64,000 nt of DNA. Origin: an uncultured Phycisphaeraceae bacterium. Lineage in GTDB: Bacteria; Planctomycetota; B15-G4; JADJEK01. How positions within the stretch are numbered: position 1 is the stretch's first letter; each line of letters opens with the position of its first letter. The notes under the pieces were generated by a model that was given only the letters and a program-made list of their open reading frames with translations, was not told where the DNA came from and did not search any database. The stretch is from NCBI GenBank assembly GCA_964649825.1, contig CAZYQW010000032.1, positions 7,877 to 71,876 on the forward strand, given 5' to 3'. Shown here piece after piece: positions 1,909 through 35,258 of this stretch. The position numbers were made by a program, and so were the translations under genes.

Positions 1909-3207
1909 TCAGAGCGAATCGATCGTGAACGAGCAGCCCTCGGTCGCGTCGACCGCGACGAGGCTCGAGTTCAAGAACAGCCACTGCGTGAAGACGTTCA
2001 ACCCGGTCGGCACGGCGGCCGGGATCGGCAGCGGGATCGCCACGCACCCCGGCGCCGACGGCCCGAGCACGAGGATGAAGCCGGGCGGCGACGGATCGAC
2101 CCAGATCGACGTGCCGAGCCCGAACACGGGCCCGCAGAAGTAGCCGGGGCCGGGGACGCTCGTGTTCACGAGCAGCACCGTGAGCGTGCCCGCCGGCGCG
2201 CCCGAGTACTCGAGGCCGAACGTCGCGCTCGGCGTCGTCGACGCCCCGAACGTGCCGCAGCGCGCCGTCACGCGGTTCGTGCCGTACGTGATCCCGTGCG
2301 ACGCGAACGCGAGCCCGTTCAACGGCGCGGGCGTCGGTGAGCAGGTGATCGGCGAGTAGAACGTCGGCGCGGCGATGGCGCCGGCCACGTCGATCGCCTC
2401 GATGGCGAAGCCGTCCGTCACGAAGAGCGCGGGCCGCCCGGGCGAGAGGATGCGACCCGACCCGGTGTCGAACGCGATCCCCTGGAGCACCGTGCCGAGC
2501 CCGCAGGCGGGGACCGGGAACGACGCGCCGGCCACGCAGGTCGGCAGCGCGATGTTCGTCACGGTGCCGGAGTCGTCGCACGCCCACAGGCTCGCGCTGA
2601 GCGGATCGATGGTGAGGTCGGTCAAGAGGACGCCGGGTGGAACCGGTGCGAGGCACGGCCCGAACGCCAGCACCGCTCCGGCCGCGCTGCACGGCGGCGG
2701 CGGCGGGAGCAGCCCGGCGATGAGCCGGCCGTCGGTGATGTACAGCGTCGGAAAGCCGCCCGTGGCGAAGCCGAACTCGTCGAACCCCATGCCGGTGATC
2801 GGGCCGAAGCCGGCTCCGAGGAGGACGGTCGGAATGCTGAAGAGATCGAGCGGCGTGCATCCGGGTGGAACGCCGCACGGCGTGTCGCCGACGTACACGC
2901 CGATGAGCTTGCCGTCGGTGACGTACACCGCGTCCCGCATCGAGTCGTACGCGACGTCGCCGAGGATGCCGGGCGGCGGCGCGCCGGGCCCCGGCCCGAA
3001 GACGCCGCACATCGGCACGGTGAACGGGCACGCGGTCACGATCGGGTTCGGGGCCCCGCACGCCCCGCCGGGCGCGGCGGTGAACTCCCACAGGAGCCCG
3101 CCTCCCGCGTCGTTGCCGTAGAACGTCTGGCCGAAGAGCGGCGACGCGAACGTCGACGACAGCGCGAGAACGCCAAGGACCAGTCCACGCGAAGAGCACT
3201 GCGACAT
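1909..3207 (-). CDS. Secreted Gly/Pro/Cys-rich repeat protein. Signal peptide MSQCSSRGLVLGVLALSSTFASP. The C-terminus (...IPLPIPAAVPTGLNVFTQWLFLNSS...) is a divergent copy of the shared ~100-aa module described in the findings.
   Basis: The 649-aa track ORF contains an internal ATG at 3207 preceded by GGAGGAG, and the N-terminal signal peptide starts there. The ORF upstream of that ATG is Arg-rich junk. Confidence 0.7.
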   Translation of the reverse strand: MSQCSSRGLVLGVLALSSTFASPLFGQTFYGNDAGGGLLWEFTAAPGGACGAPNPIVTACPFTVPMCGVFGPGPGAPPPGILGDVAYDSMRDAVYVTDGKLIGVYVGDTPCGVPPGCTPLDLFSIPTVLLGAGFGPITGMGFDEFGFATGGFPTLYITDGRLIAGLLPPPPPCSAAGAVLAFGPCLAPVPPGVLLTDLTIDPLSASLWACDDSGTVTNIALPTCVAGASFPVPACGLGTVLQGIAFDTGSGRILSPGRPALFVTDGFAIEAIDVAGAIAAPTFYSPITCSPTPAPLNGLAFASHGITYGTNRVTARCGTFGASTTPSATFGLEYSGAPAGTLTVLLVNTSVPGPGYFCGPVFGLGTSIWVDPSPPGFILVLGPSAPGCVAIPLPIPAAVPTGLNVFTQWLFLNSSLVAVDATEGCSFTIDSL

Positions 3208-3415
3208 GATGATCTCCTCCATCCGGGATGGGTTCCGGAGGGGCCGAACGACGCCGCGTATTCTACCGTCGCCCCCGCGCGCAACAGGGTCGCGGCCGCG
3301 ATGGCCCGCCGCGCCGCGTTCGACGTAGTTCCCGGGAACGGGCCGGCCGGACGCCGCGACCGCCCGATCGGAACCCGGGGGACGACGATCCGAACCGGCG
3401 ACGCAACCCTCCAAC

Positions 3416-3505
3416 GGGGTGGGCCGGATGGCGGGGGTGGCCGGGGTGGCCCGCGTTGGCGGGGTGACCGGGGTGACCCGCGTCGCCGGGGTGACCCGCG
3501 TGGCC
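3416..3505. repeat. 9-bp tandem repeat array, ~10 units alternating GGGGTGRCC and CGCGTYGSC, in the 5' non-coding region of the 1909..3207 gene.
   Basis: Direct reading: ggggtggccggggtggcccgcgttggcggggtgaccggggtgacccgcgtcgccggggtgacccgcgtggcc. Confidence 0.6.
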
Positions 3506-4020
3506 GAGGACATGATCGACGCAACCGTCGCGTTTCCGGCCTTCCTCGCGTCACCGCGGATCCCGACGCCCTCGGCGGGGACCCTTGCGCCCGTGGCAGG
3601 TGCTCGAGCGTGCGAAGGCCGGTGTGGCTCGCGTCGAACCCCTCGTGGGACGGAGGTGCGGCAGGACGATCCGACGATCCGGAGCCCGAGCCCGAGCCCG
3701 AGGACGTCCACGACGTGCTTCCGTACGCCGCGGCGACGCGGAGCGATCACGTCGTGCCGCTCGAAGCTCGAAGCGCCGGTGCATGACGAGGCTCCGGCTC
3801 GCGATGGGGCATGGCGCCGTCGCCGTGATCGGCCATCGGGCTCGCTCGGGGAGCGCATCCTCGGCGACGTCCTCGATGCCCGCCGGCGAGCCGGTGGCGC
3901 CCGGGATGCGTCGAAGAACGGTCGCGTCGCGAACCCCCGCCGCGCCCGGGCTCCGCGACGGCGCTTCGCTCGTCCCTCGCGGCGCCGCGCTCCGCCGCCT
4001 GGAACCGGGAGTCCGGGGGC

Positions 4021-4893
4021 CTACCGGCCCACCGGACTGACCCGCCCCTGACCTCGGGCGAGGCGGAACCCGATGCACGAGTTGCGGTAGCCGGGGTCGA
4101 TCGCGAAGCGGAACGCCGACCGGCAGTACCTCGCGCGATCGAGCCACGAGCCGCCGCGAAGCACCCGTGACGAGCCTTCGAGCGAGAATCGCAGGTCCTT
4201 CCCTTCATCCAACACATCCACCCGATCCGAACACCACTCCCACACATTCCCATGCATCTCGCGCAACCCCCAATCGTTCGAGGGCAGCGTGCCAACGTCG
4301 ACCGTCGCTTCGCGGTACAGGCCCTTCTTGCCGCGCCCGTACGGGCGGTTCCCGTCGTAGTTCACCTGCTCCGTCGTGATCGTTCCGCCGAACGAGAACG
4401 GCGTCGTCGTGCCAGCGCGGCACGCGTATTCCCATTCCTCGTCGCTCGGCAGGCGGAGACTCAATCCGTCGACTTGCTCGTTCACGCGCTCGATGAACTG
4501 GACGGCGTCGTCCCAGCTCACGTTCTCGACCGGATGCTGCGGGCCACGAAACTCGCTCGGGTTCTCGCCCGTCACCGCCTCCCAAAGCGCCTGCGTGACC
4601 GTCGTCTCGCCGAGCCAGAGGCCTTCCGCGATCACGACGCGGCGCTGCACCTCGTCGGCGTATCGCCCCACCTCGTCCTCCGGCGATCCGATCGTGAAGA
4701 CGCCGGGCGGGATCCAGCGCAGCCGATGATCGACCCCCGCCACGCGGAACGCCGCGAAGATGCCGTGGCGATCCTGTCCCCACGCGCGCGCCCACGCGGG
4801 CGCATGGCCCGAGACCAGGGGATGGCGGACCCGCGTCTTCACGGCGGCGAAGGCACCGCGAAGAAGAGCGCCGGCGAGCGTTCGACCGGGCAT
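4021..4893 (-). CDS. Stand-alone FGE-sulfatase / SUMF1-family (formylglycine-generating-enzyme-like) domain protein, 290 aa.
   Basis: Motifs WIPPG.F.MGS, HPV..VSW.DA..F, EW.CRAGT.TPF..G, HGNVWEWC.D and [16 protein letters not shown]....PG.R....GFRLARGQ are present. Confidence 0.8.
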   Translation of the reverse strand: MPGRTLAGALLRGAFAAVKTRVRHPLVSGHAPAWARAWGQDRHGIFAAFRVAGVDHRLRWIPPGVFTIGSPEDEVGRYADEVQRRVVIAEGLWLGETTVTQALWEAVTGENPSEFRGPQHPVENVSWDDAVQFIERVNEQVDGLSLRLPSDEEWEYACRAGTTTPFSFGGTITTEQVNYDGNRPYGRGKKGLYREATVDVGTLPSNDWGLREMHGNVWEWCSDRVDVLDEGKDLRFSLEGSSRVLRGGSWLDRARYCRSAFRFAIDPGYRNSCIGFRLARGQGRVSPVGR

Positions 4894-4986
4894 CCGCTCA
4901 TCGGTCTACCCGCACGCCGGCGTCCGCTTTCTTTTCGTCGCACCGGCGAGCGGCGCGAGCCGGATGAGGGTCGGGTCAGGGGCGGG

Positions 4987-5130
4987 TCATCCAACCCTCT
5001 CCTGCGCTCGGGCGAGGCGGAACCCGATGTTCGAGTTGCGGTTGCCGGGGTCGTTCGCGTTGCGGTACGCCGACCGGCAGTTCCTCGCGTTCGCGTTCCA
5101 CGAGCCGCCGCGAAGCACCCGTTGCGAGCC
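4987..5130 (-). pseudogene. Orphan C-terminal fragment of an FGE-sulfatase domain (...[45 protein letters not shown]). It has no N-terminal catalytic part and is out of frame with the upstream small ORF.
   Basis: Only the last ~45 residues of the domain are encoded. The DNA is a near-copy of the 3' ends of the other FGE domains in the cluster. Confidence 0.5.
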
Positions 5131-5432
5131 TTCGTGACCCTCACCTTGCGCAGGTCGCGCAGCCGCGCGTAGACCGCGAACTCGGGCTCGCTCAGCTTCT
5201 CGCGGTAGTCGACCCTCGGCCTCCTCCCGGCCGCCCCGAACGACGGCGGCGCCGCCGCCGCCCTCGTCGTCGCGTCGACGGTCGTGACGGCGAGGAGCCA
5301 GTGGCTGCACTCGCCCTGCGCGACGAACTGGCGATCGACGGTCGAGACGCGATGGTTGGCGAGGAACGCGTTCAGCTCGGCCTCGGCCTCGGCCGGCTCG
5401 AACGCGGGGATGGTGAAGAAGCGGACGCGCAT
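5131..5432 (-). CDS. Small hypothetical protein ([51 protein letters not shown]...). The true C-terminus is unclear because the track ORF reads through the FGE fragment in an alternate frame.
   Basis: ATG at 5432, 5 nt downstream of the stop of the 1232-aa gene, with a codon-biased frame. The 3' part of track ORF 4839..5492 ([16 protein letters not shown]...) is the alternate-frame reading of the FGE repeat DNA. Confidence 0.35.
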
Positions 5433-5436
5433 CGGA

Positions 5437-8400
5437 TCACTTCCGGCGTTTGCGGCGGCGTGAAGAAGGCTTCGCGGGCGCCTCCGGCGCACGCCGGGAC
5501 TCCGCAGCGGCGCTCGCTCGTCCCTCGCGGCGCCGTGCTCCGTCCTGTTCTCGTTCTTGGCTGGATTCCTGACCCGCCCCCTGACCTCGGGCGAGGCGGA
5601 ACCCGATGCTCGAGTTGCGGGCGCCGGGGGCGTTCGCGAGGCGGGACGCCGACCGGCAGATCCTCGCGAGATCGTTCCACGAGCCGCCGCGAAGCACCCG
5701 CCTCGAGCCCTCGGTCGGATTGCGCACGATCTCTCTCCCCGTCCAGTCCACGCGATCCACGCACCACTCCCAGACGTTCCCGATCATGTCGTACAGGCCG
5801 AACCCGTTCGGAGCCTTCCGAGCCACGGGATGGGTTCCCGCGCGCTTGTGATCGTACTGCTTCTTCGGCCAACCCCGGGAGTCCTCTCCATCCTCGAGCT
5901 CGAAGTCGACCCCGCTGTTCCCGCCGTACCAGGCGATGTCGTCGAGCACCGGATCGTCGTTATCGCCGCGGATCTCGAGCTCGCCCGCATACGTGCTCGT
6001 CGTCGTCCCCGCCCGGCAGGCGTACTCCCAATCGCGCTCGGCCGGCAGATGGCAACGCAATCCCGATGCCTTCGCGACCTTCTCGAAGAACGCCTTCGTG
6101 TCGTCCCAGGTCACCTGTTCGACCGGTCGCGTCGCCGAACGGAAACGGCTCGGGTTCTTGCCCATCACCGCCTGCCAAAGCTCCTGCGTGCACGGCGTCT
6201 CGCCGAGCCAGAAACCGGAGGGAACGATCTCCTCGCGGTGGTGCTCCCAGTCGTACCGCCCCACCTCCCCCTCCGGCGACCCCATCCAGAACCGCCCCGG
6301 CGGGATCCAGCGCATGCGGAACGACACGTCGTTCACCTCGATCTCCACCCAGAGGCCGAACCGGTCGCGGCCGATCGCGCGCGCCCACTCGGGCTTCGTG
6401 ATCGTGCCGGCATGCCAGTCGCCTTGGTCGGTCGCGATCGTGAAGCGACGCGCGACCCGGATCTCGGCGACCGGCGCGGACTCCGCGACGGCGCTCGCTC
6501 GTCCCTCGCGGCGCCGTGCTCCGTCCGGGCCGGTCGCCGGATCCGGCTCCCGACCTGGACCGGACTGCCCCTGACCTCGGGCGAGGCGGAACCCGATGCT
6601 CGAGATGCGGTCGCCGGGGGCGCTCGCGCTGCGGTACGCCGACCGGCAGAACCACGCGGACGCGAACCACGAGCCGCCGCGAAGCACCCGCTCCGAGCCT
6701 CTGGACGGCCCGGTCGGATCGACGGCCCGACCCGGCCCGTACTCGCCGAACCAATCCTGGCACCACTCCCACACGTTCCCGTGCATCTCGAACAGTCCCC
6801 ACGCGTTCGGCGGCAGCGATCCCACGCCCACCGTATGTTCCCGATACCGCCCCTTCGGGCCGTTCGCGTACGGGAAGTTCCCGTCGTAGTTCACGTCGTC
6901 GGGAGTCACGTTCGCGCCGAACGAGAACGGCGTCGTCGTGCCGGCGCGGCAGGCGCGGCAGGCGAACTCCCACTCGGCCTCGGTCGGCAGCCGCAGCTCG
7001 AGATCGGGGATCTCGCAGTTCACGGTCTGCACGAGACGCTGCGCGTCGTCCCAGCTCACCGAGTCGACCGGGCGCTGCGGACCCTTGAAGCGGCTCGGGT
7101 TCTTGTCCATCACCACTTGCCACAGCTCCTGCGTGACCGCGGTGTCGGCGATCCAGTAGCCGCGCGTCAGCGTGACCTCGTGCTGCGTTTCGTCGTCCCA
7201 CCGTTCCGCTTCGTCCTCCGGCGATCCCATCAGGAACGTCCCCGGCTCGATCCAGCGCATGCGCATGCGTACCCCGCGGATCTCGCAATCGGCCCAGATG
7301 CCGAACTCGTCCGCGCCCGACGCTACCGCCCACGAGGGCGTCGTCGACTCCACCCCGCGGTCGTCGAGCTTCGGGAGGGCGAGCGCTCTCGCCGCGTCGA
7401 TCGCCAGGCGCTGCGACGGCGCGCCGGCATCGTGGAGCACGAGCTCCGCGCCCGCCGCGGTGACGATCGCCAGCGCCGAGTCCTGCTCCTCCTCCAACCC
7501 GGCGCGCGGCACGACGAGACGCGGCGTGATCGTCCCCCCGCGTTGCTCGAGACGCCACGCGCGCGGGGCGGCTCGTTCGGGAGGCGTTGGTCTCCATCCC
7601 GGCGGCGGCTCCGCCGTATCGTCGATCGAGCGTTCGTACTTCTCGAACAGGCGCACGAACACGGGGCCGAACTCGTCGTGCGTCTTCAGCGCGGCCGGAA
7701 CGCGCACGCCGACTCGCCGCGACCAGTCGCCGAGGCCGGAGAGTTGCGGTGCATCTCGGGCCGCGACCCGGTTCAGGAACTCCAGCGCGGCCCGCACGTG
7801 CTCGGGGCTCGCGACGTCGGGGTCGCAGGCGAAGAGCGACATCGCCTCTTCGTGCTCGATCTCGCGCGGCGCGGCGGCGTGCCACTCGCGCATCAGGTCG
7901 GCGACGGCGCGCCGCTGCGCGAGCGCTTCTGATTTCCGCTCGACGCGAGCGAGCTCCTGCCAGTCGCGGTCGAGCGAGAGCGCGACGGCCGAGCTGCCGC
8001 CGACGGCGTCGTGCTGCCACGCGTCCACTTCGGTCGACGCGTCCGCCTCGTGCACGGTCAGCCGCAGCCGCACGGACCGCAGGAGCCCGGGCTCGACGCG
8101 CACGGCCGGCGCGAGCAGCCGCAAGAGCCGCAACGCGCGCAACTCGCGCTCGTCGAACGAGATGTCGTCGCCGTCCGATCGATCCCAGACCTGCGCGTTC
8201 CAGAGGTCGCGCGCGAAGCCAGGCCAGCGCGGGGTCGGGGCGGGGATCAGCGCGTGCAGGCGATGCCCGCGGCGCGCGAGCTCTTCGCCCCGGCGCCGCC
8301 ACGCGGCCTGCACGATCGGGCCGGCGTACGCGCCGAGGTCGCCGAGGAGGAGGACGGGGACGTGCGGCGGGGGCGGCCGCGGCGCTCCGCCCTCAGCGCC

Positions 8401-9135
8401 GCGCCCGAGCGGCGCGCCCACCGCGCCGCGCCCGAGCGGCGCGCTCTCCGGGCCGGCGAGGTACGACCACTCGACGAGCGCGCGGTCGCCGAGGAGGCGC
8501 GCGAGCCGCGCGCGGAGGTCGTCCTGATCGTCGTAGAACGGAGTCAGCCGGGGATCGCGGTCGGCGAGGATCCAGACGCGCGGCGCGAGCCCGCGGTCCT
8601 TGCGGCGCGGGATGCGGCGGATCAGCTCGCCGCGGCTCCAGCGATCGACGAGCGCGAGGACGTCGATCTCGCTCTTGTCGCGCGTGCGCGACAGCGCTCG
8701 GCGCAGCCACGTCCAGAGGCGCGGCCACGCGAGGAGCGGCGGCGTAGCGGGCGGCCGCGCCGCGCGCGGCGTGCTGTCCGAGGCGCCGTAGATCGGCTCG
8801 GGCGGACGCGGCGCGGGGATCTCGCGCGGAGCGAAGCCGTAGACGACGTGGAACGGCAGCTCCTCGGGAACGTACTCCGGCTCGACGTCGGGAACGTCGC
8901 GCGCCTCGCGCTCGCCGCGCGGCGCGCCGGCCGGCACCGGCTTCCGATGTTCCGGGGGAGCCGGCCGCGCCTCGAACCCGAGCAAGCGCGCCGCGTCGCC
9001 GAACGCGTCGCCGGTGGCGTCGATCGATACGTCGCGGGACGGGTCCCTGGACGCGTCCGCGAGATCGAGCGCGCGCACGAGATCGGCCCGTCCGAGCGTG
9101 CCATGACCCGCGAAGCTCCGCCCGCGAACGGTCAT
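5437..9135 (-). CDS. 1232-aa protein. The N-terminal ~640 aa are unassigned (possible degenerate vWA-like or effector-associated region, not verifiable by eye). Two tandem FGE-sulfatase/SUMF1 domains follow (aa ~640-890 and ~930-1200). It is the third gene of the TIR-AAA operon.
   Basis: Two full sets of FGE motifs are present: WI.PG.F.MGSPE...W, ..VSW.DA, EWE.ACRAGTTT, HGNVWEWC and RVLRGGSW....CRSA.R....PG.R.SSIGFRLARGQG. The start ATG overlaps the AAA gene stop (ATGA at 9132-9135). Confidence 0.85.
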   Translation of the reverse strand: MTVRGRSFAGHGTLGRADLVRALDLADASRDPSRDVSIDATGDAFGDAARLLGFEARPAPPEHRKPVPAGAPRGEREARDVPDVEPEYVPEELPFHVVYGFAPREIPAPRPPEPIYGASDSTPRAARPPATPPLLAWPRLWTWLRRALSRTRDKSEIDVLALVDRWSRGELIRRIPRRKDRGLAPRVWILADRDPRLTPFYDDQDDLRARLARLLGDRALVEWSYLAGPESAPLGRGAVGAPLGRGAEGGAPRPPPPHVPVLLLGDLGAYAGPIVQAAWRRRGEELARRGHRLHALIPAPTPRWPGFARDLWNAQVWDRSDGDDISFDERELRALRLLRLLAPAVRVEPGLLRSVRLRLTVHEADASTEVDAWQHDAVGGSSAVALSLDRDWQELARVERKSEALAQRRAVADLMREWHAAAPREIEHEEAMSLFACDPDVASPEHVRAALEFLNRVAARDAPQLSGLGDWSRRVGVRVPAALKTHDEFGPVFVRLFEKYERSIDDTAEPPPGWRPTPPERAAPRAWRLEQRGGTITPRLVVPRAGLEEEQDSALAIVTAAGAELVLHDAGAPSQRLAIDAARALALPKLDDRGVESTTPSWAVASGADEFGIWADCEIRGVRMRMRWIEPGTFLMGSPEDEAERWDDETQHEVTLTRGYWIADTAVTQELWQVVMDKNPSRFKGPQRPVDSVSWDDAQRLVQTVNCEIPDLELRLPTEAEWEFACRACRAGTTTPFSFGANVTPDDVNYDGNFPYANGPKGRYREHTVGVGSLPPNAWGLFEMHGNVWEWCQDWFGEYGPGRAVDPTGPSRGSERVLRGGSWFASAWFCRSAYRSASAPGDRISSIGFRLARGQGQSGPGREPDPATGPDGARRREGRASAVAESAPVAEIRVARRFTIATDQGDWHAGTITKPEWARAIGRDRFGLWVEIEVNDVSFRMRWIPPGRFWMGSPEGEVGRYDWEHHREEIVPSGFWLGETPCTQELWQAVMGKNPSRFRSATRPVEQVTWDDTKAFFEKVAKASGLRCHLPAERDWEYACRAGTTTSTYAGELEIRGDNDDPVLDDIAWYGGNSGVDFELEDGEDSRGWPKKQYDHKRAGTHPVARKAPNGFGLYDMIGNVWEWCVDRVDWTGREIVRNPTEGSRRVLRGGSWNDLARICRSASRLANAPGARNSSIGFRLARGQGAGQESSQEREQDGARRREGRASAAAESRRAPEAPAKPSSRRRKRRK

Positions 9136-10094
9136 CGCACCTCGCCGTCCGGGTGCTTTCGGTAGGCGAACTTCGCGATCGTCGCGAGCGTCTCGAGCTG
9201 CTTCTTCTCCGACTTCTCCCGCTTGTCCAGCGCGCGCAGCAGGTCGAGGTACTCTGCCTGTCCGGGCGGCGAGAGACCGCGCTCGCGCACGCCGCGGCGG
9301 TCGTCGACGAGGAGCTCGGCCGCCCGCTCGAGAACCGTCGTCTTCATCTTCGCGAAGTGCGCGGCGCCGCGCTTCACGAGATGCTCGATCAGCTTGGCGT
9401 CGTCGTCCGGGAGCCCGAGCTGCAGCACGAGGCAGCGGCGCAGGAACGCGTCCGGCAGCGCGCGCTCCTCGTTCGTCGTGACCACCACGAGCGGATCGGT
9501 CATGGCCACGATCGGGTCGGCGCGGTCAGGGACGGGAAACGAGCCGTTGCCGAGCGCCTCGAGCAGCCCGTTCGGCACGTCGACGTCCGCCTTGTCGATC
9601 TCGTCGAGGAGGAGGACGACACCGTTCTTCGAATCGCACTCGGGATGCGGCGGCGCCGGCTCCCGCCCGAGCTTGTACTTCTTCGCCTCGTCCCAATCGA
9701 ACGCCCAGAAGAGCGGCCCGGGCCGCAGGAACTTCGCGTGGTCGAGCAGCTCGTGGACGCTCGCGTCGCCCGCCCGCAGCGCCCCGAGCACCTGCGCCTG
9801 CGCCAGCCGCTCGACCGTGTCGACGGTGTAGAGGAGGTCGCGCGCCTCGGTCCGCGCATCGATCACCTTCGCGACGAACGCACGTCGCATCGCGACGGCC
9901 GCCGCCCGCGCGAGCTGACTCTTGCCCGTGCCCGGCTCGCCGCGCAGCAACAGCGGCCGCCCCGCCGCGATCGCCGTGTTGACGGCGTGGACGTGGTCCG
10001 CCTCGAAGACGTGGACCTGGCGGTGGAGCCCGCCGCAGGCGGGGAGTTCTTCGACGTCGCCGGCGGCGCGGTCGAGGTACGGAGAATGGGTCAA
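9132..10094 (-). CDS. MoxR-like AAA+ ATPase (AAA_3/AAA_5 type), 320 aa.
   Basis: Walker A LLLRGEPGTGKSQLARA, Walker B VVLLLDEIDKA, sensor region PLVVVTTNEE...LPDAFLRRCLVLQL. A 3-nt gap to the upstream TIR gene and a 4-nt overlap with the downstream gene indicate an operon. Confidence 0.85.
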   Translation of the reverse strand: MTHSPYLDRAAGDVEELPACGGLHRQVHVFEADHVHAVNTAIAAGRPLLLRGEPGTGKSQLARAAAVAMRRAFVAKVIDARTEARDLLYTVDTVERLAQAQVLGALRAGDASVHELLDHAKFLRPGPLFWAFDWDEAKKYKLGREPAPPHPECDSKNGVVLLLDEIDKADVDVPNGLLEALGNGSFPVPDRADPIVAMTDPLVVVTTNEERALPDAFLRRCLVLQLGLPDDDAKLIEHLVKRGAAHFAKMKTTVLERAAELLVDDRRGVRERGLSPPGQAEYLDLLRALDKREKSEKKQLETLATIAKFAYRKHPDGEVR

Positions 10095-10097
10095 GGG

Positions 10098-11363
10098 TCA
10101 CTCCACGTCGTCGATGAGTTGCTTCAGAAGGTCGGCGACCCGATGGTCGTCCACCGACGAAGTGCCGCAAAGCTCGAGGATCGTCAGATCCTTGAGACGC
10201 GTTCGGATCGCGCTGATCTGCTCGAGGCAGTAGGATCGCGTCTTCTCGTCCATCGCTCCCGATTCGAAAACGATGTACCACGGTCGATCGGTGTCTGTGC
10301 GGTTCGCGATCGCCGCATTGATCTTGTCGAGGTTGGTTTCGCCCCCGAGCCCGATGGACTTGGCCAGGTGTTCGGTCACGTGATCGGCCAGGTTGTCGAT
10401 TCCGGACTCGACGCCGCGGAACGTCAAGTTCCACGGGCTCCTGTCGTAGCGCAGGTTGCCGTAATTCGTCTCACCAACGGGGAGTTTCCCGGGCAGCGCA
10501 CGGAGGGATGCGTCTTTCCCATGAGCAGCGGCGAGAAAGCCCTCCGCTACAGTCTCGGACGGGGTCGGAAGGGCGACCATCAGGTGTCCCCGCGCAATAT
10601 GTTGCCGCAGTTCGTCCACCCCGGCCTCGTCGCACTGGGTCGGGAGGAGCATCAACGCGATCGCCCTCAGGTTGCGACAACAGCGAACGATGTCTTCGCT
10701 CATGCTCGGGAGTCCGTTACGCACCTTGACCAGCGCGATCAGGCTTTCACGCAGCGACTGCCCGAGCAGGCTCTCTACGACCATCCGACAACGCTGGTCC
10801 CGGTTCGCCGCCTCGTACTTTGGCTCCCGGCGATCGAACGCGGTCCAGATCGCATCGTAGAGGTTGCTTGACATAACCAAGCCGATGAGACGCTGCCTGA
10901 CCCGTTCGAGCGCAGCGGCACGCTCGGGTGTACTCTCTTCGCCCTTTGGAGACGCACCTTTCGCACGCTGGGCCACGAGCTTCTTCACGGCTGACAGTAC
11001 GTCGGCTCCGATGTCGCCCTTGCGGTGCAGCGCGACTGCTGCGCGCAGGTATTGCGGCACGTTCCGCGGGGGTTTCTTCACCACGAAAACCGGCAACACG
11101 AACCCCGACGGATGAGGCCAGCGCGACTCAGCCTGGTCCAACTCGGACAGCGAGTAGTTTCCCGTGGCCACGGAGTGCTGGCTGATCAGGAACACGAATA
11201 CGTGGCACCGCTCGATCTCCGCACTGATGAGCGAGTCGTAGTCGAGTCCCGCGAGCAAGCTCGTACGGTCAAAGAAAGTCGTATATCCCGCGCCGGTCAG
11301 CGCGTAGTGAATCCGCTCAGCATCGGACTTGTCTTCGCTCGCATGGCAGATGAACACGTGCAC
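10098..11363 (-). CDS. TIR-domain protein, 421 aa. N-terminal TIR domain: MHVFICHASEDKSDAERIHYALTGAGYTTFFDRTSLLAGLDYDSLISAEIERCHVFVFLISQHS. The C-terminal ~280 aa are of unknown function.
   Basis: Classic bacterial TIR_2 start (VFISHASEDK-like) with conserved acidic/Ser positions. It is the first gene of the three-gene minus-strand operon. Confidence 0.85.
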   Translation of the reverse strand: MHVFICHASEDKSDAERIHYALTGAGYTTFFDRTSLLAGLDYDSLISAEIERCHVFVFLISQHSVATGNYSLSELDQAESRWPHPSGFVLPVFVVKKPPRNVPQYLRAAVALHRKGDIGADVLSAVKKLVAQRAKGASPKGEESTPERAAALERVRQRLIGLVMSSNLYDAIWTAFDRREPKYEAANRDQRCRMVVESLLGQSLRESLIALVKVRNGLPSMSEDIVRCCRNLRAIALMLLPTQCDEAGVDELRQHIARGHLMVALPTPSETVAEGFLAAAHGKDASLRALPGKLPVGETNYGNLRYDRSPWNLTFRGVESGIDNLADHVTEHLAKSIGLGGETNLDKINAAIANRTDTDRPWYIVFESGAMDEKTRSYCLEQISAIRTRLKDLTILELCGTSSVDDHRVADLLKQLIDDVE

Positions 11364-11496
11364 GCGCGGAGCCTACCCCGCCCCGACCCGCGCGATCCAG
11401 TCAGGAACCGCCGAACCCCTCCCGCTCCCGCGTCGAGAACCGTGCCGTGCCCCCCCAACCGGCGGGATCAACCCGTCTTCGGTCGAACGCGGTTCT

Positions 11497-12072
11497 TCAC
11501 GAAGACGACGCTCGGCGCCGTTCCCAACGCTCCAGTCGCACGAAGGCGAAGAACGCGATCACGGCGAGCAGCGCCATGTACCACCAAGGGGACAGTCCGC
11601 TCGCGGTGGCCCACGTCGCCTTGCCGAGGTCGCCGACTCCCATCACGTGCGCCTGGACCCACGCGTGCGACTCCGCGTAGAGCGCGGCGCCCACGAGCAT
11701 CCCGAGCACTCCGGGAATCGCGTGACGCGAGCCGTCGCCCATCGCGGCCACGCCCGTGCCGGGACAGTAGCCGAGCACGGCCATCCCGACTCCGAAGATG
11801 ATGCCGCCGGACGCATTCGCCAGCAGGTGGGCGGCCTTGACGTGGAGGGTCTCGAGCAGACCGACCTGCACCATTCCGTAGATGCCGACTCCGCCGACGA
11901 GGATCGCGGTGAGCATCACCTTTGCAACCGTGAAGTCCTCGAGGAGGAACTGCTCCACGATCACGCGAAAACGCGTCACGCCTCCTTTCTGCAGCAGGAA
12001 GCCGAACACGAAACCGGTCAGAGCGCCGAGGAGGAGGACCTGGGGAGCCGCGAAGAAATCGGAGTCAAACAT
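11497..12072 (-). CDS. YeeE/YedE-family membrane protein, half-size (thiosulfate/sulfur-compound transporter family).
   Basis: TM-rich MFDSDFFAAPQVLLLGALTGFVFGFLLQKGGVTRF... Tandem with a second half-size paralog; start at an internal ATG (12072) overlapping the upstream gene by 8 nt. Confidence 0.8.
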   Translation of the reverse strand: MFDSDFFAAPQVLLLGALTGFVFGFLLQKGGVTRFRVIVEQFLLEDFTVAKVMLTAILVGGVGIYGMVQVGLLETLHVKAAHLLANASGGIIFGVGMAVLGYCPGTGVAAMGDGSRHAIPGVLGMLVGAALYAESHAWVQAHVMGVGDLGKATWATASGLSPWWYMALLAVIAFFAFVRLERWERRRASSS

Positions 12073-12619
12073 GGCGACGACCTTTCGTCCCGCCCTTTGT
12101 CCCATAGATGAGGAACGCCGTCACGATCCCCGACGCGAACATGGACGCGAGGAACGTCCAGGACGAGATCGCGAGCTGGAGCGACCCCGAGATGCCGTGT
12201 CCGGACGTGCATCCGCCCGCGAGCCGGGCGCCGAACAACAGGATCGCTCCGCCCAGGAACGCGCCGGCGTACCGTTTCCCGCGGCTTGGGCCGAAGCGGG
12301 CCGCCCACAGATCGGGGACGTGCTCGCGATGCGACGAGCGCGCCAGCCGCGCGGCGACGAACGAGCCGAAGAACAGCATCACGACGAGCGCCGCCTGCCA
12401 ATCGAAGGCCGGATCCTTGGCCAGGTGCTGCGCGAAGTACGGGTTCGCTCGGACGTGGTCGGGCGCGACGACCGCCTCGATGACGCCCGCCGCGCGCACC
12501 ATGGTGGTCGAGGTGCCGAGCGTCTCGTCCATGAACAGGAACGTGATCCAGGAGAGAACGCCGATACCCGCCCCGACGAGGTAAGGCGACCAGCGAGGTT
12601 TCTCGAGCCATGTCGACAT
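12065..12619 (-). CDS. YeeE/YedE-family membrane protein, half-size, with the GGCTSGHG signature.
   Basis: Motif LAGGCTSGHGISG plus multiple TM segments. Confidence 0.8.
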   Translation of the reverse strand: MSTWLEKPRWSPYLVGAGIGVLSWITFLFMDETLGTSTTMVRAAGVIEAVVAPDHVRANPYFAQHLAKDPAFDWQAALVVMLFFGSFVAARLARSSHREHVPDLWAARFGPSRGKRYAGAFLGGAILLFGARLAGGCTSGHGISGSLQLAISSWTFLASMFASGIVTAFLIYGTKGGTKGRRHV

Positions 12620-12944
12620 TGGGCCTGCGTTTCCGAAATGGGTCGGCCGGACCGGACACGCCGGCGCAAAAGGCGTTCCCGGACGCGATCGGGACGACGG
12701 GGGCGACGCATCACCGGGGGCGTCGGTCCAGTGCGGTCCGAACGAGGCGACATCGTGGAAACGAGCCGGAACGATTCCGCAGTCGCCGCGAAAGGTTCAC
12801 CACTCGGGCCGCTCACGCGGCCGGTGGCGGCGCGGGCCCGGGCGGGTTCCCGCTTCTGGGTCGAGCGAGGTATGGAGTTTGCTTTCCGGTCCTGCGGCGC
12901 GCGACGAGCGCGAAGGAAACTCGAAGTACGAGGAGAACCAAACC

Positions 12945-13385
12945 ATGAAACTCATTCCCCGAAACGAACCTCAGTCGATGGCGAAGCTGCAGGACCGCAT
13001 GAACCGCCTGTTCGAGAACTTCTTCGACGGAGACCACTGGCCGGTGGCTCGCGAAGGATTCGTCCCGGCCGTGGACGTGGTGGATACCGACGAGAAGCTC
13101 GTCGTGAAGGTGGAGCTCCCCGGAGTGGACCCGAAGGACATCGATGTCTCGGTGCACGACAACGTGCTCACCATCCGGGGTGAAAAGAAGTCCGAGCGCG
13201 AGGAGAAGGAGAAGGCGTGGCACCTGCGGGAGTCGACCTACGGCAGCTTCAGTCGGTCGATGACGCTCCCGCCCTCCGTGAACGCGGACAAGATCGAAGC
13301 GACGTGCGCGGCGGGCGTGCTGACGTTGTCGCTGCCGAAGTCACCGACGACCAAGCCGCGCCAGATCTCCGTCAAGACGAAGTGA
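12945..13385 (+). CDS. hsp20: Hsp20/alpha-crystallin-family small heat-shock protein.
   Basis: MKLIPRNEPQS...FVPAVDVVDTDEKLVVKVELPGVDPKDIDVSVHDNVLTIRGEKK...GSFSRSMTLP is the canonical ACD. GGAG RBS 8 nt upstream. A hairpin (ccggggctc...gagccccgg) follows the stop. Confidence 0.9.
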   Translation: MKLIPRNEPQSMAKLQDRMNRLFENFFDGDHWPVAREGFVPAVDVVDTDEKLVVKVELPGVDPKDIDVSVHDNVLTIRGEKKSEREEKEKAWHLRESTYGSFSRSMTLPPSVNADKIEATCAAGVLTLSLPKSPTTKPRQISVKTK

Positions 13386-13532
13386 TCGGTCGGGATCGAA
13401 CCGGGGCTCCTCGAGGAGGAGAGCCCCGGAGGCGACCCCGTTGATCGACTCCCCGGACTTGCTGGATTCCTGGACGCGCGGGGCCGAACCGCTATCCTCG
13501 TTCCTGCCCCATTCCTCCAGCCCCCCGGACGC

Positions 13533-14894
13533 GTGAACCGGAAAGCCCACGCATTCTCGACGCTCCTGCTCCTCGCGGCCCTCTCGACGTGCTCCTCCCG
13601 CGACGACGCCACCGGTCCGAACCTGGTCATCGTGACGCTCGACACGTTTCGCGTCGATCGGGTCGGCACGTTCGGGAACGAGGACGGGCTCACGCCGAAC
13701 CTCGATCGAATCGCGGAGGAGGCGACGCGGTTCCCGCGGGCGCTGACGCCGATCGGGACGACGCATCCGGCGCACGCGAGCCTGTTCACGGGGCTCTATC
13801 CGGGCGAGCACGGGGTCCGCTTCAACGGCGACGTGCTGGACGACGACGTGACGACGCTGGCCGAGCTGCTCCGCGACGCCGGCTACCGGACCGCGGCGTT
13901 CGTCGCGAAGAAGAACATGATCGTGCGCGGGGGCCTGCAGCAGGGCTTCGACGTGCGCAGCGACGACGCGCCGGACGGCGGTCCGAGGATCCGGCCGGGC
14001 GACGCGGTCAACGAGCTGGCGCTCGACTGGCTCGACGCCGCCGGCGACGGGCCGTTCTTCCTGTGGGTGCATTACTTCGAGACGCACACGCCGCTGCGGA
14101 ACACGACGTACGCGCGCGAGCGGCTCGGCCGCTACGACGGTCCGCTCAAGAACGGCGCCCCGACCGAGCTCGTCTACGACCTCGGCACCGACCGGCTCCC
14201 TGACACGCCCGCGAACCGTCGCGCGCTCGCGATGCTCTACGACGGCGAGGTCCTCGAGGCGGATCGCCTCGTCGGCGACGTCTACGCGAAGCTCCGCGCG
14301 CTCGGCCGGCTCGACGACACGATCGTCGTCGTCGCGGCCGACCACGGTGAACTCCTCGGCGAGCACGGCGAGGTCGGACACGGCTTCCACGTGCTCGAGC
14401 CGGTGCTGCGGGTGCCGCTGATGATCCGCGAACCGAAGCAGACGGAACCGCGCGACGTCGAACGCCGGGTGTCCCTCGTCGACGTCCTCCCCACCCTCGC
14501 CGAGCTGCTCGGGCTTCCGCCCCCGGAGACATCGGGTCGCTCGCTCGTCCGGCTGCTCCGCGGTCACGTCGGGCCCCCCGTCCCCTACTTCGCGAGCGTG
14601 CGCGCTCCGAACGTGAAGCGCGGCGGCGCCGCTCGTGGTCAGGACGTCCAGACGGTCGCCGTCTACCGCGATCGCTTCAAGCTCGTCCTCACGAGCGAGC
14701 GCGCCGACCTCTTCGACCTCTCCGACGATCCCGGCGAGTTCACGCCATTGACCGGAGAAGCGGCGGCGGCGGTCCGCGAGAAGCTCCTCCCGCTCGCCCT
14801 GGAGCACCGCCGGCGCGAGCGACCGGACGCCTCGCCGATCGCCCTGCCGGCCGACGTCCTCGAGGAGCTGCGCGAGCAGGGGTACATTCGCTGA
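13533..14894 (+). CDS. Sulfatase-like hydrolase/transferase of the alkaline-phosphatase superfamily with an N-terminal signal peptide. At the nucleophile position it has Gly/Thr-Thr-His (PIGTTHPAHASLFTG) rather than the Cys/Ser-x-Pro-x-Arg formylglycine motif.
   Basis: LVIVTLDTFRVDRVG...TPNLDRIAEE...LFTGLYP...AADHGE... matches the sulfatase (PF00884-like) fold. GTG start. Confidence 0.8.
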   Translation: MNRKAHAFSTLLLLAALSTCSSRDDATGPNLVIVTLDTFRVDRVGTFGNEDGLTPNLDRIAEEATRFPRALTPIGTTHPAHASLFTGLYPGEHGVRFNGDVLDDDVTTLAELLRDAGYRTAAFVAKKNMIVRGGLQQGFDVRSDDAPDGGPRIRPGDAVNELALDWLDAAGDGPFFLWVHYFETHTPLRNTTYARERLGRYDGPLKNGAPTELVYDLGTDRLPDTPANRRALAMLYDGEVLEADRLVGDVYAKLRALGRLDDTIVVVAADHGELLGEHGEVGHGFHVLEPVLRVPLMIREPKQTEPRDVERRVSLVDVLPTLAELLGLPPPETSGRSLVRLLRGHVGPPVPYFASVRAPNVKRGGAARGQDVQTVAVYRDRFKLVLTSERADLFDLSDDPGEFTPLTGEAAAAVREKLLPLALEHRRRERPDASPIALPADVLEELREQGYIR

Positions 14895-15012
14895 CGCCTG
14901 TGGCGACCCATCTTACGACTCCTCCCGCCTGACCCGTTGTCGTGGGTCAGAATCTGGAATAGACTCGCACTGCCGTTCCAAGCCTTCTCCTCTCTCCCAG
15001 GTGGAGCTCCCT

Positions 15013-16911
15013 ATGCAGCGTTCTCTCCCGATCGCCGGGCTGGCGATCCTCTGTTTTTCGACGACGCCGGCCACGGCCCAGCAGTTCACGGTCGACGGGA
15101 CGGCGCTTCCCGCGCAGAACATCTGGACCGACGGCGTCGCCTTCTCCGACGTCGACATGGACGGCTTCGTCGACATCCTGTTTGCCAATGGACAGGGTTA
15201 CGGCTCGGGCGGCGCCCTCCAGCAGCACCTCTTCATGAACCACTCGGGAGGAGTTCCCGGGAAGTTCTCCGCCGCGCACGGCAACCTGAACGTCGCCAAC
15301 TTCAACGCGAAGATGGTGATCGCCGAGGACTTCGACAACGACGGCGACCCCGACCTGATGTACGCGCCCGAGGGCCAGTTCCCGAGCCCCAACCAGACCC
15401 CGCGCATGCTGATCAACGACGGCACGGGGATGTTCGCCGATCAATCGGCGGCGCGGCTGCCGGCGGCCGGAATGGCCTCGTTCTGCGTCTGCGCCGGTGA
15501 CACGGACGACGACGGCGACCTCGACGTGGTCTTCACCGACGGAGCGACGTTCGGCGGCGTCGCGACGCAGGCGCGCCTGTACCAGAACAACGGCTCCGGC
15601 GTGTTCAGCAACGTGACCACGACGGCCCTCCCGGCCGACACGTACAACGCGCAGGACGTCACGCTCATCGACTGGGACAAGGACTTCGACCTCGACATCG
15701 CCCTGTCGGGCAAGGGCGCCACCAACAAGCGCGCGCGTCTCTATCTGAACAACGGCGCGGGGGTCTTCAGCATCTCGAACGCGCTCAACGCCCTCGGCAG
15801 CGGCGGTACGTACGAGATCGACTCCGGCGACCTCGACGGCGACGGCGATCCGGACGCGCTCACGCAGTCGATCTCGGGCTCGAGCGAGGGCTGGGGACGC
15901 AACGACGGCCCGACGACGACCGTCCCCGAGTTCACCTTCCCGTCCCCGAACGGCGACGACGACAACGAGATGGCCGGCCTCGACTACGACAACGACGGCG
16001 ACGTCGACGTCTTCGTCGGCTCGCTCGGGAACCGCGAGAAGGCGTATCGCAACAACGGCGGTGGATCGTTCACGAACGTGAACTCGATCATCCAGGCGCA
16101 GGACGACTCGACCCTCGACTTCGGGTTCGCGGACCTCGACAACGACGGCGACTACGACATGGTCACCGGTCAGGGCGAGTCGGGGAACTTCACGAACAAG
16201 GTCTACAAGAACGCTGGTCCGCGCGACAGTCAGCCACCGCGGCTCCTGGCGCTGCAGACGGCGCCGCCGCTCGCCGCGCCGCGGACGCCGTTCCACGTCA
16301 CCCTCCAGGACGCGATCGTCGACGACGGCAAGAGCTACCTGACGGTCGAGTACATCTTCGCGACCGACGATGGCGCAAACAGCACGTCGGGCAGCGGAAC
16401 CGCGCGCCACTCGGGCGGCGGCACGTTCCGTGCGCAGGTCGACACGCAGCTCAGCGTCAACTCGATCTCGCTGGCGTGGATCGCGCGCGATCCGGGTGGC
16501 AACGCGTCGGCGTTCGGGTCGGTCTCGGCCGGCGCGCCGAGCGCGTACACCGACCTCGGCAACGGGCTCGAGGGTCAGCGCGGGGTGCCGGTGCTCCTCG
16601 GCGTCGGCGCGCTCAAGCCGAGCACGCCTGGAATCCTGAAGCTCACGAAGGCGCGAGCGAACTCCCCGGCGTTCCTGCTGGTCGGGACGGCGGCGGGCAA
16701 CGTTCCGTTCATGGGCGGCGTCCTGGTCCCGTTCCCGGTGATCCTGCAGGTCAACCTCGCGACGAACGCAGAGGGCGAGATCACGCTGCCGTTCGTCTGG
16801 CCGGCCGCCGTCCCCTCCGGCACGAACGTCTTCCTCCAGACGCTCATCAGCGACGCGGCCGCGGTGCAGGGGTTCGCGTTCTCGAACGGCCTGCAGATGA
16901 CGTCGCCCTGA
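15013..16911 (+). CDS. Secreted FG-GAP/VCBS-repeat (integrin-alpha-like beta-propeller) protein carrying the shared C-terminal module.
   Basis: Signal peptide MQRSLPIAGLAILCFSTTPATA. Repeated D.D.DGD.D and FG..G motifs. AGGTGGAG RBS. C-terminus ...PFMGGVLVPFPVILQ...NVFLQTLISDAAAVQGFAFSNGLQMTSP. Confidence 0.85.
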   Translation: MQRSLPIAGLAILCFSTTPATAQQFTVDGTALPAQNIWTDGVAFSDVDMDGFVDILFANGQGYGSGGALQQHLFMNHSGGVPGKFSAAHGNLNVANFNAKMVIAEDFDNDGDPDLMYAPEGQFPSPNQTPRMLINDGTGMFADQSAARLPAAGMASFCVCAGDTDDDGDLDVVFTDGATFGGVATQARLYQNNGSGVFSNVTTTALPADTYNAQDVTLIDWDKDFDLDIALSGKGATNKRARLYLNNGAGVFSISNALNALGSGGTYEIDSGDLDGDGDPDALTQSISGSSEGWGRNDGPTTTVPEFTFPSPNGDDDNEMAGLDYDNDGDVDVFVGSLGNREKAYRNNGGGSFTNVNSIIQAQDDSTLDFGFADLDNDGDYDMVTGQGESGNFTNKVYKNAGPRDSQPPRLLALQTAPPLAAPRTPFHVTLQDAIVDDGKSYLTVEYIFATDDGANSTSGSGTARHSGGGTFRAQVDTQLSVNSISLAWIARDPGGNASAFGSVSAGAPSAYTDLGNGLEGQRGVPVLLGVGALKPSTPGILKLTKARANSPAFLLVGTAAGNVPFMGGVLVPFPVILQVNLATNAEGEITLPFVWPAAVPSGTNVFLQTLISDAAAVQGFAFSNGLQMTSP

Positions 16912-23071: not shown

Positions 23072-23210
23072 CTGATACGTGGCCGGCAAGAGGCCATTCA
23101 CGCTGGTGTCGAACGTTTTTTGCACGGCTCGGCGCACATCGCGGCTCGAGCATGTCGGCGTGGCGAACGAGGGCTATCCTGTCCGAATCGATCAGAAGGA
23201 CCGAGGACCG

Positions 23211-35033: not shown

Positions 35034-35258
35034 GGCCGCGCCTCATTGGAACTCGTGCCAAACATGGCGGCCGAACCTAGATGACAGATCACGATTCGGC
35101 AATGGTCCGAAGCCCGAGCCGAATCCGCTCCGGTCCCCGTACCCGTTCCGTCGGCGCGTGCCCGTGCCCGCGACCGCGCTATGATCTCCGCCGGTTTCGG
35201 TTGCGCGGCCGCAACTCCCCACCTGATCCACCTCGGCCGCAGCGGGAGGCACCATCCC

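Follow-up and report, generated by a model that had tools for sequence, protein, structure and literature searches.

The four repeats between positions 4034 and 6700 are best explained as the template repeat (TR) and three variable regions (VRs) of an HRDC-type diversity-generating retroelement (DGR), in a locus which was most likely disabled recently and is now degenerate, leaving three sensor tips frozen; the probability of this reading is put at about 60%. The observations that carry it are the TR/VR identity, a pattern of differences specific to adenines, a gene order shared with loci that are intact, and the lack of a reverse transcriptase (RT) gene. Features of the locus are collected in Table 1.

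Table 1. Features of the DGR locus and its neighbours, with positions in the window.
Feature	Position	Strand	Remarks
GC-rich ~49-nt element downstream of VR_A	3949..3997	-	Hairpin-capable; candidate target-recognition element
Short FGE-only DGR target, 290 aa from first ATG	4021..4893	-	One FGE-sulfatase domain (Pfam)
VR_A, at the C-terminal end of the short target's FGE domain	4053..4176	-	13/16 mismatches at TR adenines; Fisher p 3.6e-9; non-A identity 97%
Structured element directly 3' of TR	4868..5006	-	Covarying stem 4870-4921, second hairpin upstream of the stem
TR 3' boundary, GCGCAGGAGA	4997..5006	-	Candidate IMH* versus IMH distinction
TR of DGR, non-coding	5007..5130	-	23 adenines among 124 positions, 8 AAC codons
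Deletion junction	5131..5146	-	~1.2 kb missing relative to L017 (L017 8282-~9483)
Truncated accessory gene	5146..5432	-	Homology of the first 96 codons to HRDC-domain proteins of ~160 aa
Long DGR target, 1232 aa	5437..9135	-	Two FGE-sulfatase domains (Pfam)
VR_B, second (C-terminal) FGE domain of the 1232-aa target	5586..5709	-	12/15 mismatches at TR adenines; p 2.9e-8; non-A identity 97%
VR_C, first FGE domain of the 1232-aa target	6576..6699	-	14/15 mismatches at TR adenines; p 1.0e-11; non-A identity 99%
MoxR-like AAA+ ATPase (AAA_5; weak bpMoxR match)	9132..10094	-	Immediately upstream of the long target
TIR-domain protein, putative effector	10098..11363	-	TIR_2, E 2.4e-15; PADLOC TIR models; directly upstream of the ATPase

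A repeat search of the 64-kb window, i.e. the whole stretch of DNA analysed, revealed four direct and co-oriented copies of ~124-144 nt each on the minus strand. Taken at 144 nt the copies are situated at 4034-4177, 4988-5131, 5567-5710 and 6557-6700 and show 83–85% identity to the reference copy, and in the 124-nt core (listed as TR and VRs in Table 1) the overall identity to the orphan copy at 5007-5130 is 87–88%. An invariant 24-mer and an invariant 22-mer are each present in exactly four copies in the 64 kb (chance expectation 0.00-0.01). The original prediction of four near-identical DNA repeats thus stands for their number and approximate location, but near-identity (97–99% between TR and the three VRs) is confined to positions where the orphan copy has no adenine. 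That the similarity lies at the DNA level and not merely in the protein was borne out, as identical residues use identical codons in 100% of cases inside the VRs versus 69–74% outside. The orphan copy is also, as had been proposed, out of frame with the preceding ORF (ATG at 5432, (5432-5130) mod 3 = 2) and has no FGE domain upstream, while the long alternate-frame ORFs that had been attributed to the repeats are a general consequence of the 72% G+C.

When the three VRs were pooled, adenines of the TR made up 19 of the 22 variable positions, at codon positions 1 and 2, and the AAC codons of the TR were found to be concentrated exactly at the variable sites. The differences remained tied to the TR adenines when this dependence was checked specifically, and those between VR_A and the orthologous VR of the closest relative, L101, likewise fall mainly at adenine-templated sites. 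Despite being non-coding the TR can be read as a peptide in the VR frame, substitution of its adenines never gives rise to a stop codon, and the theoretical diversity per VR is 7e13 DNA variants and 2.5e12 peptide variants. The orphan copy is a DGR template repeat and not a decayed domain, because the differences fall on its adenines, the signature of RNA-templated adenine-specific mutagenic retrohoming. One codon departs from the pattern at non-adenine positions, GCG in the TR versus GAT in VR_A and VR_B, and is not explained by the present TR.

All three VRs sit at the 3' end of FGE/C-type-lectin domains. In the long target an N-terminal extension of ~620 aa with no known domain is followed by two such domains in tandem, at 6568-7260 and 5578-6315, and homology to the long target of the intact relative L017 runs across both the extension and the FGE domain (32% identity, E 5e-61). 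For the short target the public record gives a 273-aa product starting from a GTG at 4842.

Comparison with syntenic metagenomic loci gave the order of the intact cassette as a MoxR-type AAA ATPase, the long target, an HRDC gene, a DGR RT, the TR and the short target. L017 follows this order (AAA_5, 957-aa FGE target, HRDC, RVT_1, TR, 314-aa FGE target), with its TR between the RT and the short target, the same place as the TR of the window. The L017 RT contains IGALTSQ and YMDD and is 35% identical to Brt of the Bordetella phage (E 3e-43), and adenine positions account for 14/15 and 15/17 of the differences between its VRs and TR. This order and A-specific TR/VR pairs recur in eight further metagenomic loci, one of which, L040, harbours two tandem VR-bearing FGE domains, as does the window. 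The segment best conserved between the window and L101 is the TR itself (95.7% identity, compared with 84.5% in the neighbouring coding sequence), and the 97–99% non-A identity between TR and VRs is as high as in the intact relatives; neither value shows the decay expected of a long-dead element. Other members of the family are degenerate (L044 has only an RT fragment and L024, L026, L027, L049 and L050 have no RT), and the MoxR/FGE operon is found both in intact relatives and in relatives entirely free of a DGR. The source of the window is a metagenome-assembled contig, and short-read assemblies of the region break at the repeats, where contig L002 ends at 6964 and L101 starts within the TR.

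The accessory ORF that precedes the TR loses its homology after ...LRDLRK, and the TR begins 15 nt further on. Its homologs are 124–168 aa long and contain PF00570 HRDC in 12 of 14 cases. The alignment with the L017 HRDC gene ends at window position 5146 (L017 8281), and a tblastn search of the window with the L017 HRDC protein recovered residues 1–94 only. Pfam finds no domain in the window ORF, the HRDC domain itself being deleted, and no Avd homolog was found in the window, which thus contains no intact accessory gene of either the Avd or the HRDC kind. Relative to L017 the deleted segment comprises the last ~60 HRDC codons (the C-terminal 40%) together with the whole 332-aa RT gene, and the junction joins two unique sequences, mid-HRDC and a TR-upstream motif, not two repeat copies. 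The orphan copy had been described as an orphan domain fragment; what the deletion took was the RT together with half of the accessory gene, and no upstream FGE domain.

A DGR-clade RT was found neither next to the TR nor elsewhere in the 64 kb, where tblastn gave a best E of 0.12 with Brt and of 2.3 with the L017 RT as query, and the YxDD motif is absent from every plausible reading frame; a second TR was likewise not found in the 64 kb. This search covers the window of a 94.7-kb source contig and begins just 4 kb beyond VR_A, and an RT could lie on the ~30 kb of the contig outside it or elsewhere in the genome. With the RT and the C-terminal part of HRDC deleted, the cassette is therefore unable to diversify on its own, and since the TR and its RNA structure have been kept, either the repertoire was frozen recently or an RT encoded elsewhere acts on the locus in trans.

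The structured element 3' of the TR is kept intact in the window and has conserved motifs across 10 related DGR loci. Its covarying stem consists of 16 pairs, with 94% of the cells paired and compensatory changes in eight of the pairs; none of 500 shuffles reached the score of the stem, slid controls were 38–49% paired, and no Rfam family matches the element. At the 3' boundary the three VRs share GGTCAGGGGC (4043-4052, 5576-5585 and 6566-6575) where the TR has GCGCAGGAGA, a change of CG to GT and of A to G in all three, and GGTCAGGGG is common to all VRs where the TR reads GCGCAGGAG. The same CG/GT difference marks the TR/VR boundary of L017, and from the BPP-1 model (PMC3240598) the boundary is a candidate for the IMH*/IMH distinction. 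The ~49-nt element downstream of VR_A recurs at 5497-5545 (downstream of VR_B) and 6478-6526 (downstream of VR_C), in each case 35–55 nt downstream of the VR. The copies at VR_B and VR_C are 96% identical, the one at VR_A is 69% identical, and an exact 28-mer is shared by two of the sites. This putative hairpin does not match the 4-nt GRNA-loop hairpins of phage DGRs, and the VR-downstream flanks are likewise conserved within the related loci.

The MoxR-like ATPase stands at the head of all related cassettes, with 39–59% identity. Of the features of a MoxR-associated, DGR-diversified conflict system, the locus has the ATPase, the long and short targets and the adjacent TIR gene and lacks vWA and VMAP, for which no Pfam match was obtained among the window proteins even at E<=1. 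Such an architecture was described by Dore et al. (2024, PMC10907252), who reported MoxR upstream of a long target whose N-terminal extension is unannotated, together with TIR effectors and a short target made up of CLec alone, with clade 5A likewise devoid of vWA or VMAP components, as well as degenerate loci without an RT in which TR and VRs are kept. The window resembles clade 5A (e.g. Thiohalocapsa PB-PSB1 DGR 8) in the position of the ATPase directly upstream of the long target, in the domainless extension, in the short CLec/FGE-only second target, in the adjacent TIR effector and, for some loci, in tandem VR-bearing CLec domains within one gene, a likeness judged by architecture. It differs from the loci of that study in its HRDC-type accessory gene and in that the RT was lost through a clean ~1.2 kb deletion also truncating this gene, with no transposon or MITE array at the site, and the host is probably outside the taxa covered there, as a housekeeping gene has its best named homologs in Planctomycetota. 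The ternary VMAP/MoxR conflict systems of Kaur et al. (2020, PMC7159879), whose FGS domains are diversified by a DGR, share with the window the MoxR ATPase, the TIR effector and a DGR-linked FGE/FGS protein, but the window proteins have no detectable vWA or VMAP domain.

According to Wu et al. (2018, PMC5758913), about 4% of DGRs are known to have an HRDC accessory gene. Like these "architecture C" DGRs, e.g. in Treponema denticola, the window has an HRDC accessory gene, multiple targets and VR domains of the FGE-sulfatase type, but here only the first 96 codons of the gene are left, and no HRDC domain can be detected in it. [quoted passage not shown] In contrast to BPP-1 the window locus is chromosomal and not phage-borne, it has HRDC instead of Avd and three VRs in two genes without an RT, the order is accessory-RT-TR in the family as compared with avd-TR-brt, and the targets are cytoplasmic-looking conflict-system proteins and not a tail fibre.

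Following the BPP-1 paradigm, the TR of an intact cassette would be transcribed and then copied by the DGR RT with misincorporation opposite template adenines, and the cDNA would take the place of the 3'-terminal VR in each FGE/C-type-lectin domain, so that ~14 codons of the ligand-binding surface would be randomised with the scaffold untouched. The targets would be the immune sensors of the MoxR-ATPase/TIR conflict system, a role suggested by comparative genomics in the literature and in line with the earlier proposal of diversifying sensor modules, which is supported in the sense of diversifying ligand-binding modules. In this genome a deletion of ~1.2 kb has removed the RT and the C-terminal 40% of the HRDC gene, with the TR, the 3' structured RNA element, the three VRs and the flanking candidate recognition sequences remaining.

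The repeats had originally been ascribed to recent duplication, gene conversion and deletion, i.e. to FGE paralogs kept alike by ordinary conversion between DNA copies, with the 45-codon orphan piece left over from an FGE gene since deleted. Such a history would fit two adjacent genes with three FGE domains between them, direct co-oriented repeats and a deletion at the locus, and the deletion does stand. Outside the VRs, though, the three domains share only 47–56% amino-acid and 63–68% nucleotide identity, because of which they are old paralogs and not recent duplicates, and the mismatches are directional and adenine-specific with respect to the orphan copy, a pattern not given by DNA gene conversion. 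The enrichment of AAC codons exactly at the variable sites, the location of the orphan copy at the TR position of intact DGR relatives together with their conserved 3' RNA structure, and the HRDC and not FGE gene fragment preceding it make this explanation highly improbable. Recent duplication with gene conversion was rejected, since high identity across the duplicated unit and undirected differences would be needed and neither is seen. That the RT is missing only through faulty assembly or binning, or because the contig represents a minority variant of a population whose dominant genome has the full HRDC-RT segment, is unlikely, if somewhat less so. This would fit a metagenome-derived contig in a region where the independent short-read contigs L002 and L101 break inside repeats, and variants with and without RT do coexist in one natural population (PMC10907252); against it, repeat collapse would not produce the junction because no two repeat copies are joined there, and other loci of the family have degenerated independently.

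Against the preferred reading of a disabled HRDC-type DGR stands the fact that two defining DGR components, the RT and an intact accessory gene, are missing from the locus as sequenced. The lack of decay in the TR and at the non-A positions, the unexplained GAT codon, the stretches of contig and genome beyond the window where an RT could lie, and the metagenomic origin of the contig also count against it. The strongest competitor, about half as probable, is that the locus is still active and that an intact DGR of the same class beyond the window supplies RT and HRDC in trans and goes on rewriting the three VRs, with this TR RNA or a near-identical TR of its own as template. In favour of this, the locus retains an intact TR, covarying RNA element, IMH-like boundary and set of VR-downstream elements; compared with L101 the TR has changed less than its flanking genes, and the non-A TR/VR identity matches that of intact loci. 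The GAT codon of VR_A and VR_B, where the local TR has GCG, would fit templating by a second TR allele. Trans action and remote targets >100 kb away have been documented (PMC5758913), and in Thiohalocapsa each class has one complete locus with extra degenerate ones that lack key machinery, eight of nine DGR loci being diversified in nature (PMC10907252). This has to be set against the finding of neither RT nor second TR in the 64 kb. Slightly more speculatively, an RT-less cassette with selectively maintained TR and RNA structure may not be dead but belong, as a satellite, to a distributed DGR network, with one remote RT/HRDC pair serving several TR-bearing sensor loci of a probably planctomycete genome. 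In that case the shared GAT codon would have been left by cross-templating from another TR allele.

The architecture, RT-less degenerate loci included, is already described (Dore et al. 2024, PMC10907252), and the current understanding of DGRs is unchanged by this locus. What looked like a pseudogene fragment and a paralog expansion is here reclassified as a system for targeted hypermutation of three putative sensor domains, and short AAC-rich FGE-like fragments adjoining FGE genes should in annotation be read as template repeats. The locus represents a clean intermediate in DGR decay, with the RT and half of the accessory gene gone and the TR, RNA structure and target signals untouched, and a family with intact, RT-less and DGR-free members can be used to ask whether RT-less loci are frozen or diversified in trans.

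The region has a G+C content of ~72% and its genuine genes lie on the minus strand. A repeat search revealed a single family with four direct copies, each 144 nt long and with 83-85% identity to the reference copy, and an invariant 24-mer and an invariant 22-mer inside the repeat are each present at exactly four sites of the 64 kb (0.00-0.01 expected). According to Pfam there is one FGE-sulfatase domain in a 290-aa protein (the short target) and two in a 1232-aa protein (the long target), and the C-terminal ends of these three domains are encoded by three of the repeat copies. The fourth copy has no upstream FGE domain and differs in frame from the preceding ORF. The original prediction had described the repeats in this way, four copies with three at FGE C-termini and one an out-of-frame orphan, and was correct in this. 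The 620-aa N-terminal extension of the long target showed no domain with Pfam (E<=1) or PADLOC.

When the 124-nt core of the copies was aligned in register they were found to differ non-randomly, since of the 22 positions at which any copy varies, 19 are adenine in the orphan copy, whose core has 23 adenines (see table). These adenines are situated almost exclusively at codon positions 1 and 2, eight AAC codons appear when the copy is read in the genic frame, and no adenine substitution in it can give a stop codon; by adenine substitution each copy has a coding capacity of 7e13 DNA variants and 2.5e12 peptide variants. Such an adenine-biased pattern is the signature of a diversity-generating retroelement (DGR), and we hold it about 95% probable that the orphan copy is the template repeat (TR) and the three genic copies its variable regions (VR_A, VR_B and VR_C).

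Features of the DGR locus in the window, with TR/VR statistics and DNA identity to the closest relative, contig L101
Feature	Position	Strand	144-nt copy	Mismatches at TR adenines	Fisher p	Non-adenine identity to TR	Identity to L101	Remarks
VR_A	4053-4176	minus	4034-4177	13/16	3.6e-9	97%	82.3%	
VR_B	5586-5709	minus	5567-5710	12/15	2.9e-8	97%		
VR_C	6576-6699	minus	6557-6700	14/15	1.0e-11	99%		
TR core	5007-5130	minus	4988-5131				95.7%	orphan copy
Structured element	4868-5006	minus					88.5%	directly 3' of TR; stem 4870-4921, second hairpin upstream of stem
GC-rich hairpin-capable elements (~49 nt)	3949-3997, 5497-5545, 6478-6526							35-55 nt downstream of each VR
Short target	4021-4893	minus					84.5%	identity for the part upstream of the VR
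HRDC fragment	5432-5146	minus						
Long target	5437-9135	minus						
AAA_5 ATPase	9132-10094	minus						
TIR protein	10098-11363	minus						

Recent paralog duplication together with gene conversion, proposed earlier to explain the repeats, was not borne out. Outside the VR the FGE domains share only 47-56% identity at the protein level and 63-68% at the DNA level, and they are, judging from these sequences, old paralogs. Codons are shared by 100% of the identical residues inside the VR compared to 69-74% outside, which confines the similarity at the DNA level to a segment overwritten by a common template. Gene conversion between paralogs was therefore rejected, as the mismatches fall at adenines of the orphan copy and codon identity is high only inside the VR, and on the same adenine pattern and codon comparison a reading of the orphan copy as a pseudogene fragment was rejected as well. 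In place of duplication and gene conversion, the repeats are now read as belonging to a DGR, with its TR and three VRs, from which the reverse transcriptase (RT) has been lost.

Intact relatives show what such a cassette contains. The first 96 codons of a small ORF in the window, starting at 5432, are homologous to ~160-aa HRDC-domain proteins, and in L017, a 22-kb metagenomic contig, the gene order is a cyclase-like gene, an AAA_5 ATPase, a 957-aa FGE protein, HRDC, RVT_1 and a 314-aa FGE protein. The RT of L017 is 35% identical to Brt, the RT of Bordetella phage BPP-1 (E 3e-43), and carries the motifs IGALTSQ and YMDD; an AAC-rich TR lies between it and the short FGE gene, and the two VRs differ from this TR at adenines in 14/15 and 15/17 cases. 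The window is syntenic with L017, in the order TIR, AAA_5, long target, HRDC fragment, TR and short target, and when metagenomes were scanned with the ATPase as seed, the same order with A-specific TR/VR pairs was seen in eight further loci (L025, L029, L033, L034, L040, L045, L048 and L061). The long target of L040 has, as in the window, two tandem VR-bearing FGE domains. L033 seems to hold two tandem copies of the entire FGE-HRDC-RT-TR unit (5782-11568), ~2.83 kb apart and with identical match statistics, which is either a true tandem duplication of the cassette or an assembly artefact.

A scan of a genome collection also found the invariant 24-mer, CGGGTGCTTCGCGGCGGCTCGTGG (RVLRGGSW), verbatim in FGE genes of 13 loci (L004-L016) from unrelated phyla, the carriers being Desulfobacteraceae, Acidobacteriota, Solirubrobacterales, Mycobacterium, Heliomicrobium and Chthonomonadaceae. 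These sequences are at most 73% identical to the window TR and no Brt-like RT was found in their fetched flanks; they were rejected as relatives of the cassette and are probably ordinary FGE domains. Elsewhere in the window a fused E2-E1 (Kgd/OdhA-type) 2-oxoglutarate dehydrogenase is encoded at 23076-26915, its best named homologs being from Planctomycetota (65-66% identity). This is a weak indication, and the sole taxonomic one obtained for the window, that its host is probably a planctomycete.

Homology to HRDC in the window stops at 5146, after ...LRDLRK, and the TR starts at 5130. The counterparts of these two points in L017, 8281 and ~9498, are separated by ~1.2 kb holding the final ~60 codons of HRDC and the entire RT gene. 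No RT was found in the 64 kb by tblastn, neither with Brt (best E 0.12, at 34962-35123, in an unrelated gene adjoining an ATP-grasp gene) nor with the much closer RT of L017 (best E 2.3); likewise, no Avd, the BPP-1 accessory protein, was found by tblastn in the 64 kb, nor a YxDD motif in a plausible reading frame. The source is a metagenome-derived contig, and short-read contigs break at these repeats: the 9-kb Logan contig L002, identical to window 6964-16010, ends at 6964 within the FGE paralog region, and position 1 of L101 falls exactly at the TR. The VR/TR repeats fragment assemblies, and cassettes of this kind can therefore be expected to be split frequently between contigs. A collapse of repeats is nevertheless unlikely at this junction, because it joins two unique sequences, and the deletion of the RT and the HRDC end is very probably genuine.

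All three VRs have GGTCAGGGG at their 3' boundary compared to GCGCAGGAG in the TR, a difference that resembles IMH/IMH* and is a candidate for such a pair; in phage BPP-1 this distinction makes homing unidirectional (PMC3240598). The GC-rich elements following VR_B and VR_C are 96% identical. A BPP-1-type hairpin with a 4-nt GRNA loop was found near VR_A only (GGTA loop) and was rejected as a family feature. Just downstream of the short target gene, at 3415-3504, lies a 9-nt periodic repeat with CGGGGTGAC / CGGGGTGGC units, within a long ORF (1909-3858) that appears non-coding in its N-terminal half.

Related DGR loci share a conserved segment of ~140 nt on the 3' side of the TR, with counterparts in L017 (9624-9752) and in an equivalent stretch of L029, L033, L034, L040, L045, L048 and L061. 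Its predicted stem-loop is supported by covariation and is kept in the window, with 16 pairs, 94% of cells paired and compensatory changes in 8 pairs; the observed score was reached by 0/500 shuffles, and slid controls were 38-49% paired. A search of 3800-7000 against Rfam (E<=1) gave no match for the structure flanking the TR, which is thus not a curated RNA family. The element may be the counterpart of the spacer region priming cDNA synthesis in BPP-1.

The closest relative, L101, shows 85% DNA identity and is collinear with window 5123-3940. The TR core is better conserved than the other parts compared (see table), which shows that the non-coding TR has been under constraint and that the VRs have diverged. 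At non-adenine positions TR/VR identity is as high as in intact relatives; the deletion is recent, or else the locus is served in trans. We favour, roughly 2:1, a locus that is frozen or of unknown state over one served in trans. The TR codon GCG (5091-5093) is GAT in VR_A (4137-4139) and VR_B (5670-5672), differences not at adenines; the corresponding codon in L101 is TCG in the TR versus AAC in the VR, and many relatives have AAC at this codon of their TR. On these sequences the GAT and AAC codons of the VRs are unexplained by the present TRs, which suggests that an older or different TR allele was the template when the VRs were last rewritten.

As in characterised DGRs, where this cycle is established, the TR RNA would be reverse-transcribed with adenine-specific misincorporation, and the VR would then be overwritten by the cDNA, with the 3' boundary, the structure downstream and homology on the 5' side as guides. 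Wu et al. (PMC5758913) have documented DGRs with HRDC accessory genes, DGRs with remote targets and DGRs acting in trans. The G+C content of the TIR gene region (10001-11500) is 63-65%, compared to 70-78% in its neighbours, which hints at a separately acquired effector module.

A MoxR-type ATPase and a TIR protein are encoded in the same operon as the targets, and in the literature such operons are read as conflict (immune) systems whose antigen sensor is the DGR-diversified C-type-lectin/FGE domain (PMC7159879; PMC10907252). Dore et al. (PMC10907252) report the same layout, where MoxR precedes a long target whose N-terminal extension is unannotated, the short target consists of CLec alone and TIR effectors lie close by, and these authors also describe 'degenerate' loci without RT. 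Among the loci compared, L044 has kept the TR and only an internal fragment of the RT, and in five others (L024, L026, L027, L049 and L050) the ATPase is accompanied by two FGE domains, without HRDC, RT or TR; L019 combines an FGE target with an intact HRDC gene and has no RT within 8 kb. The architecture is already known and the window locus adds a degenerate case to it, in a MoxR/FGE family where loss of the DGR appears to be recurrent.
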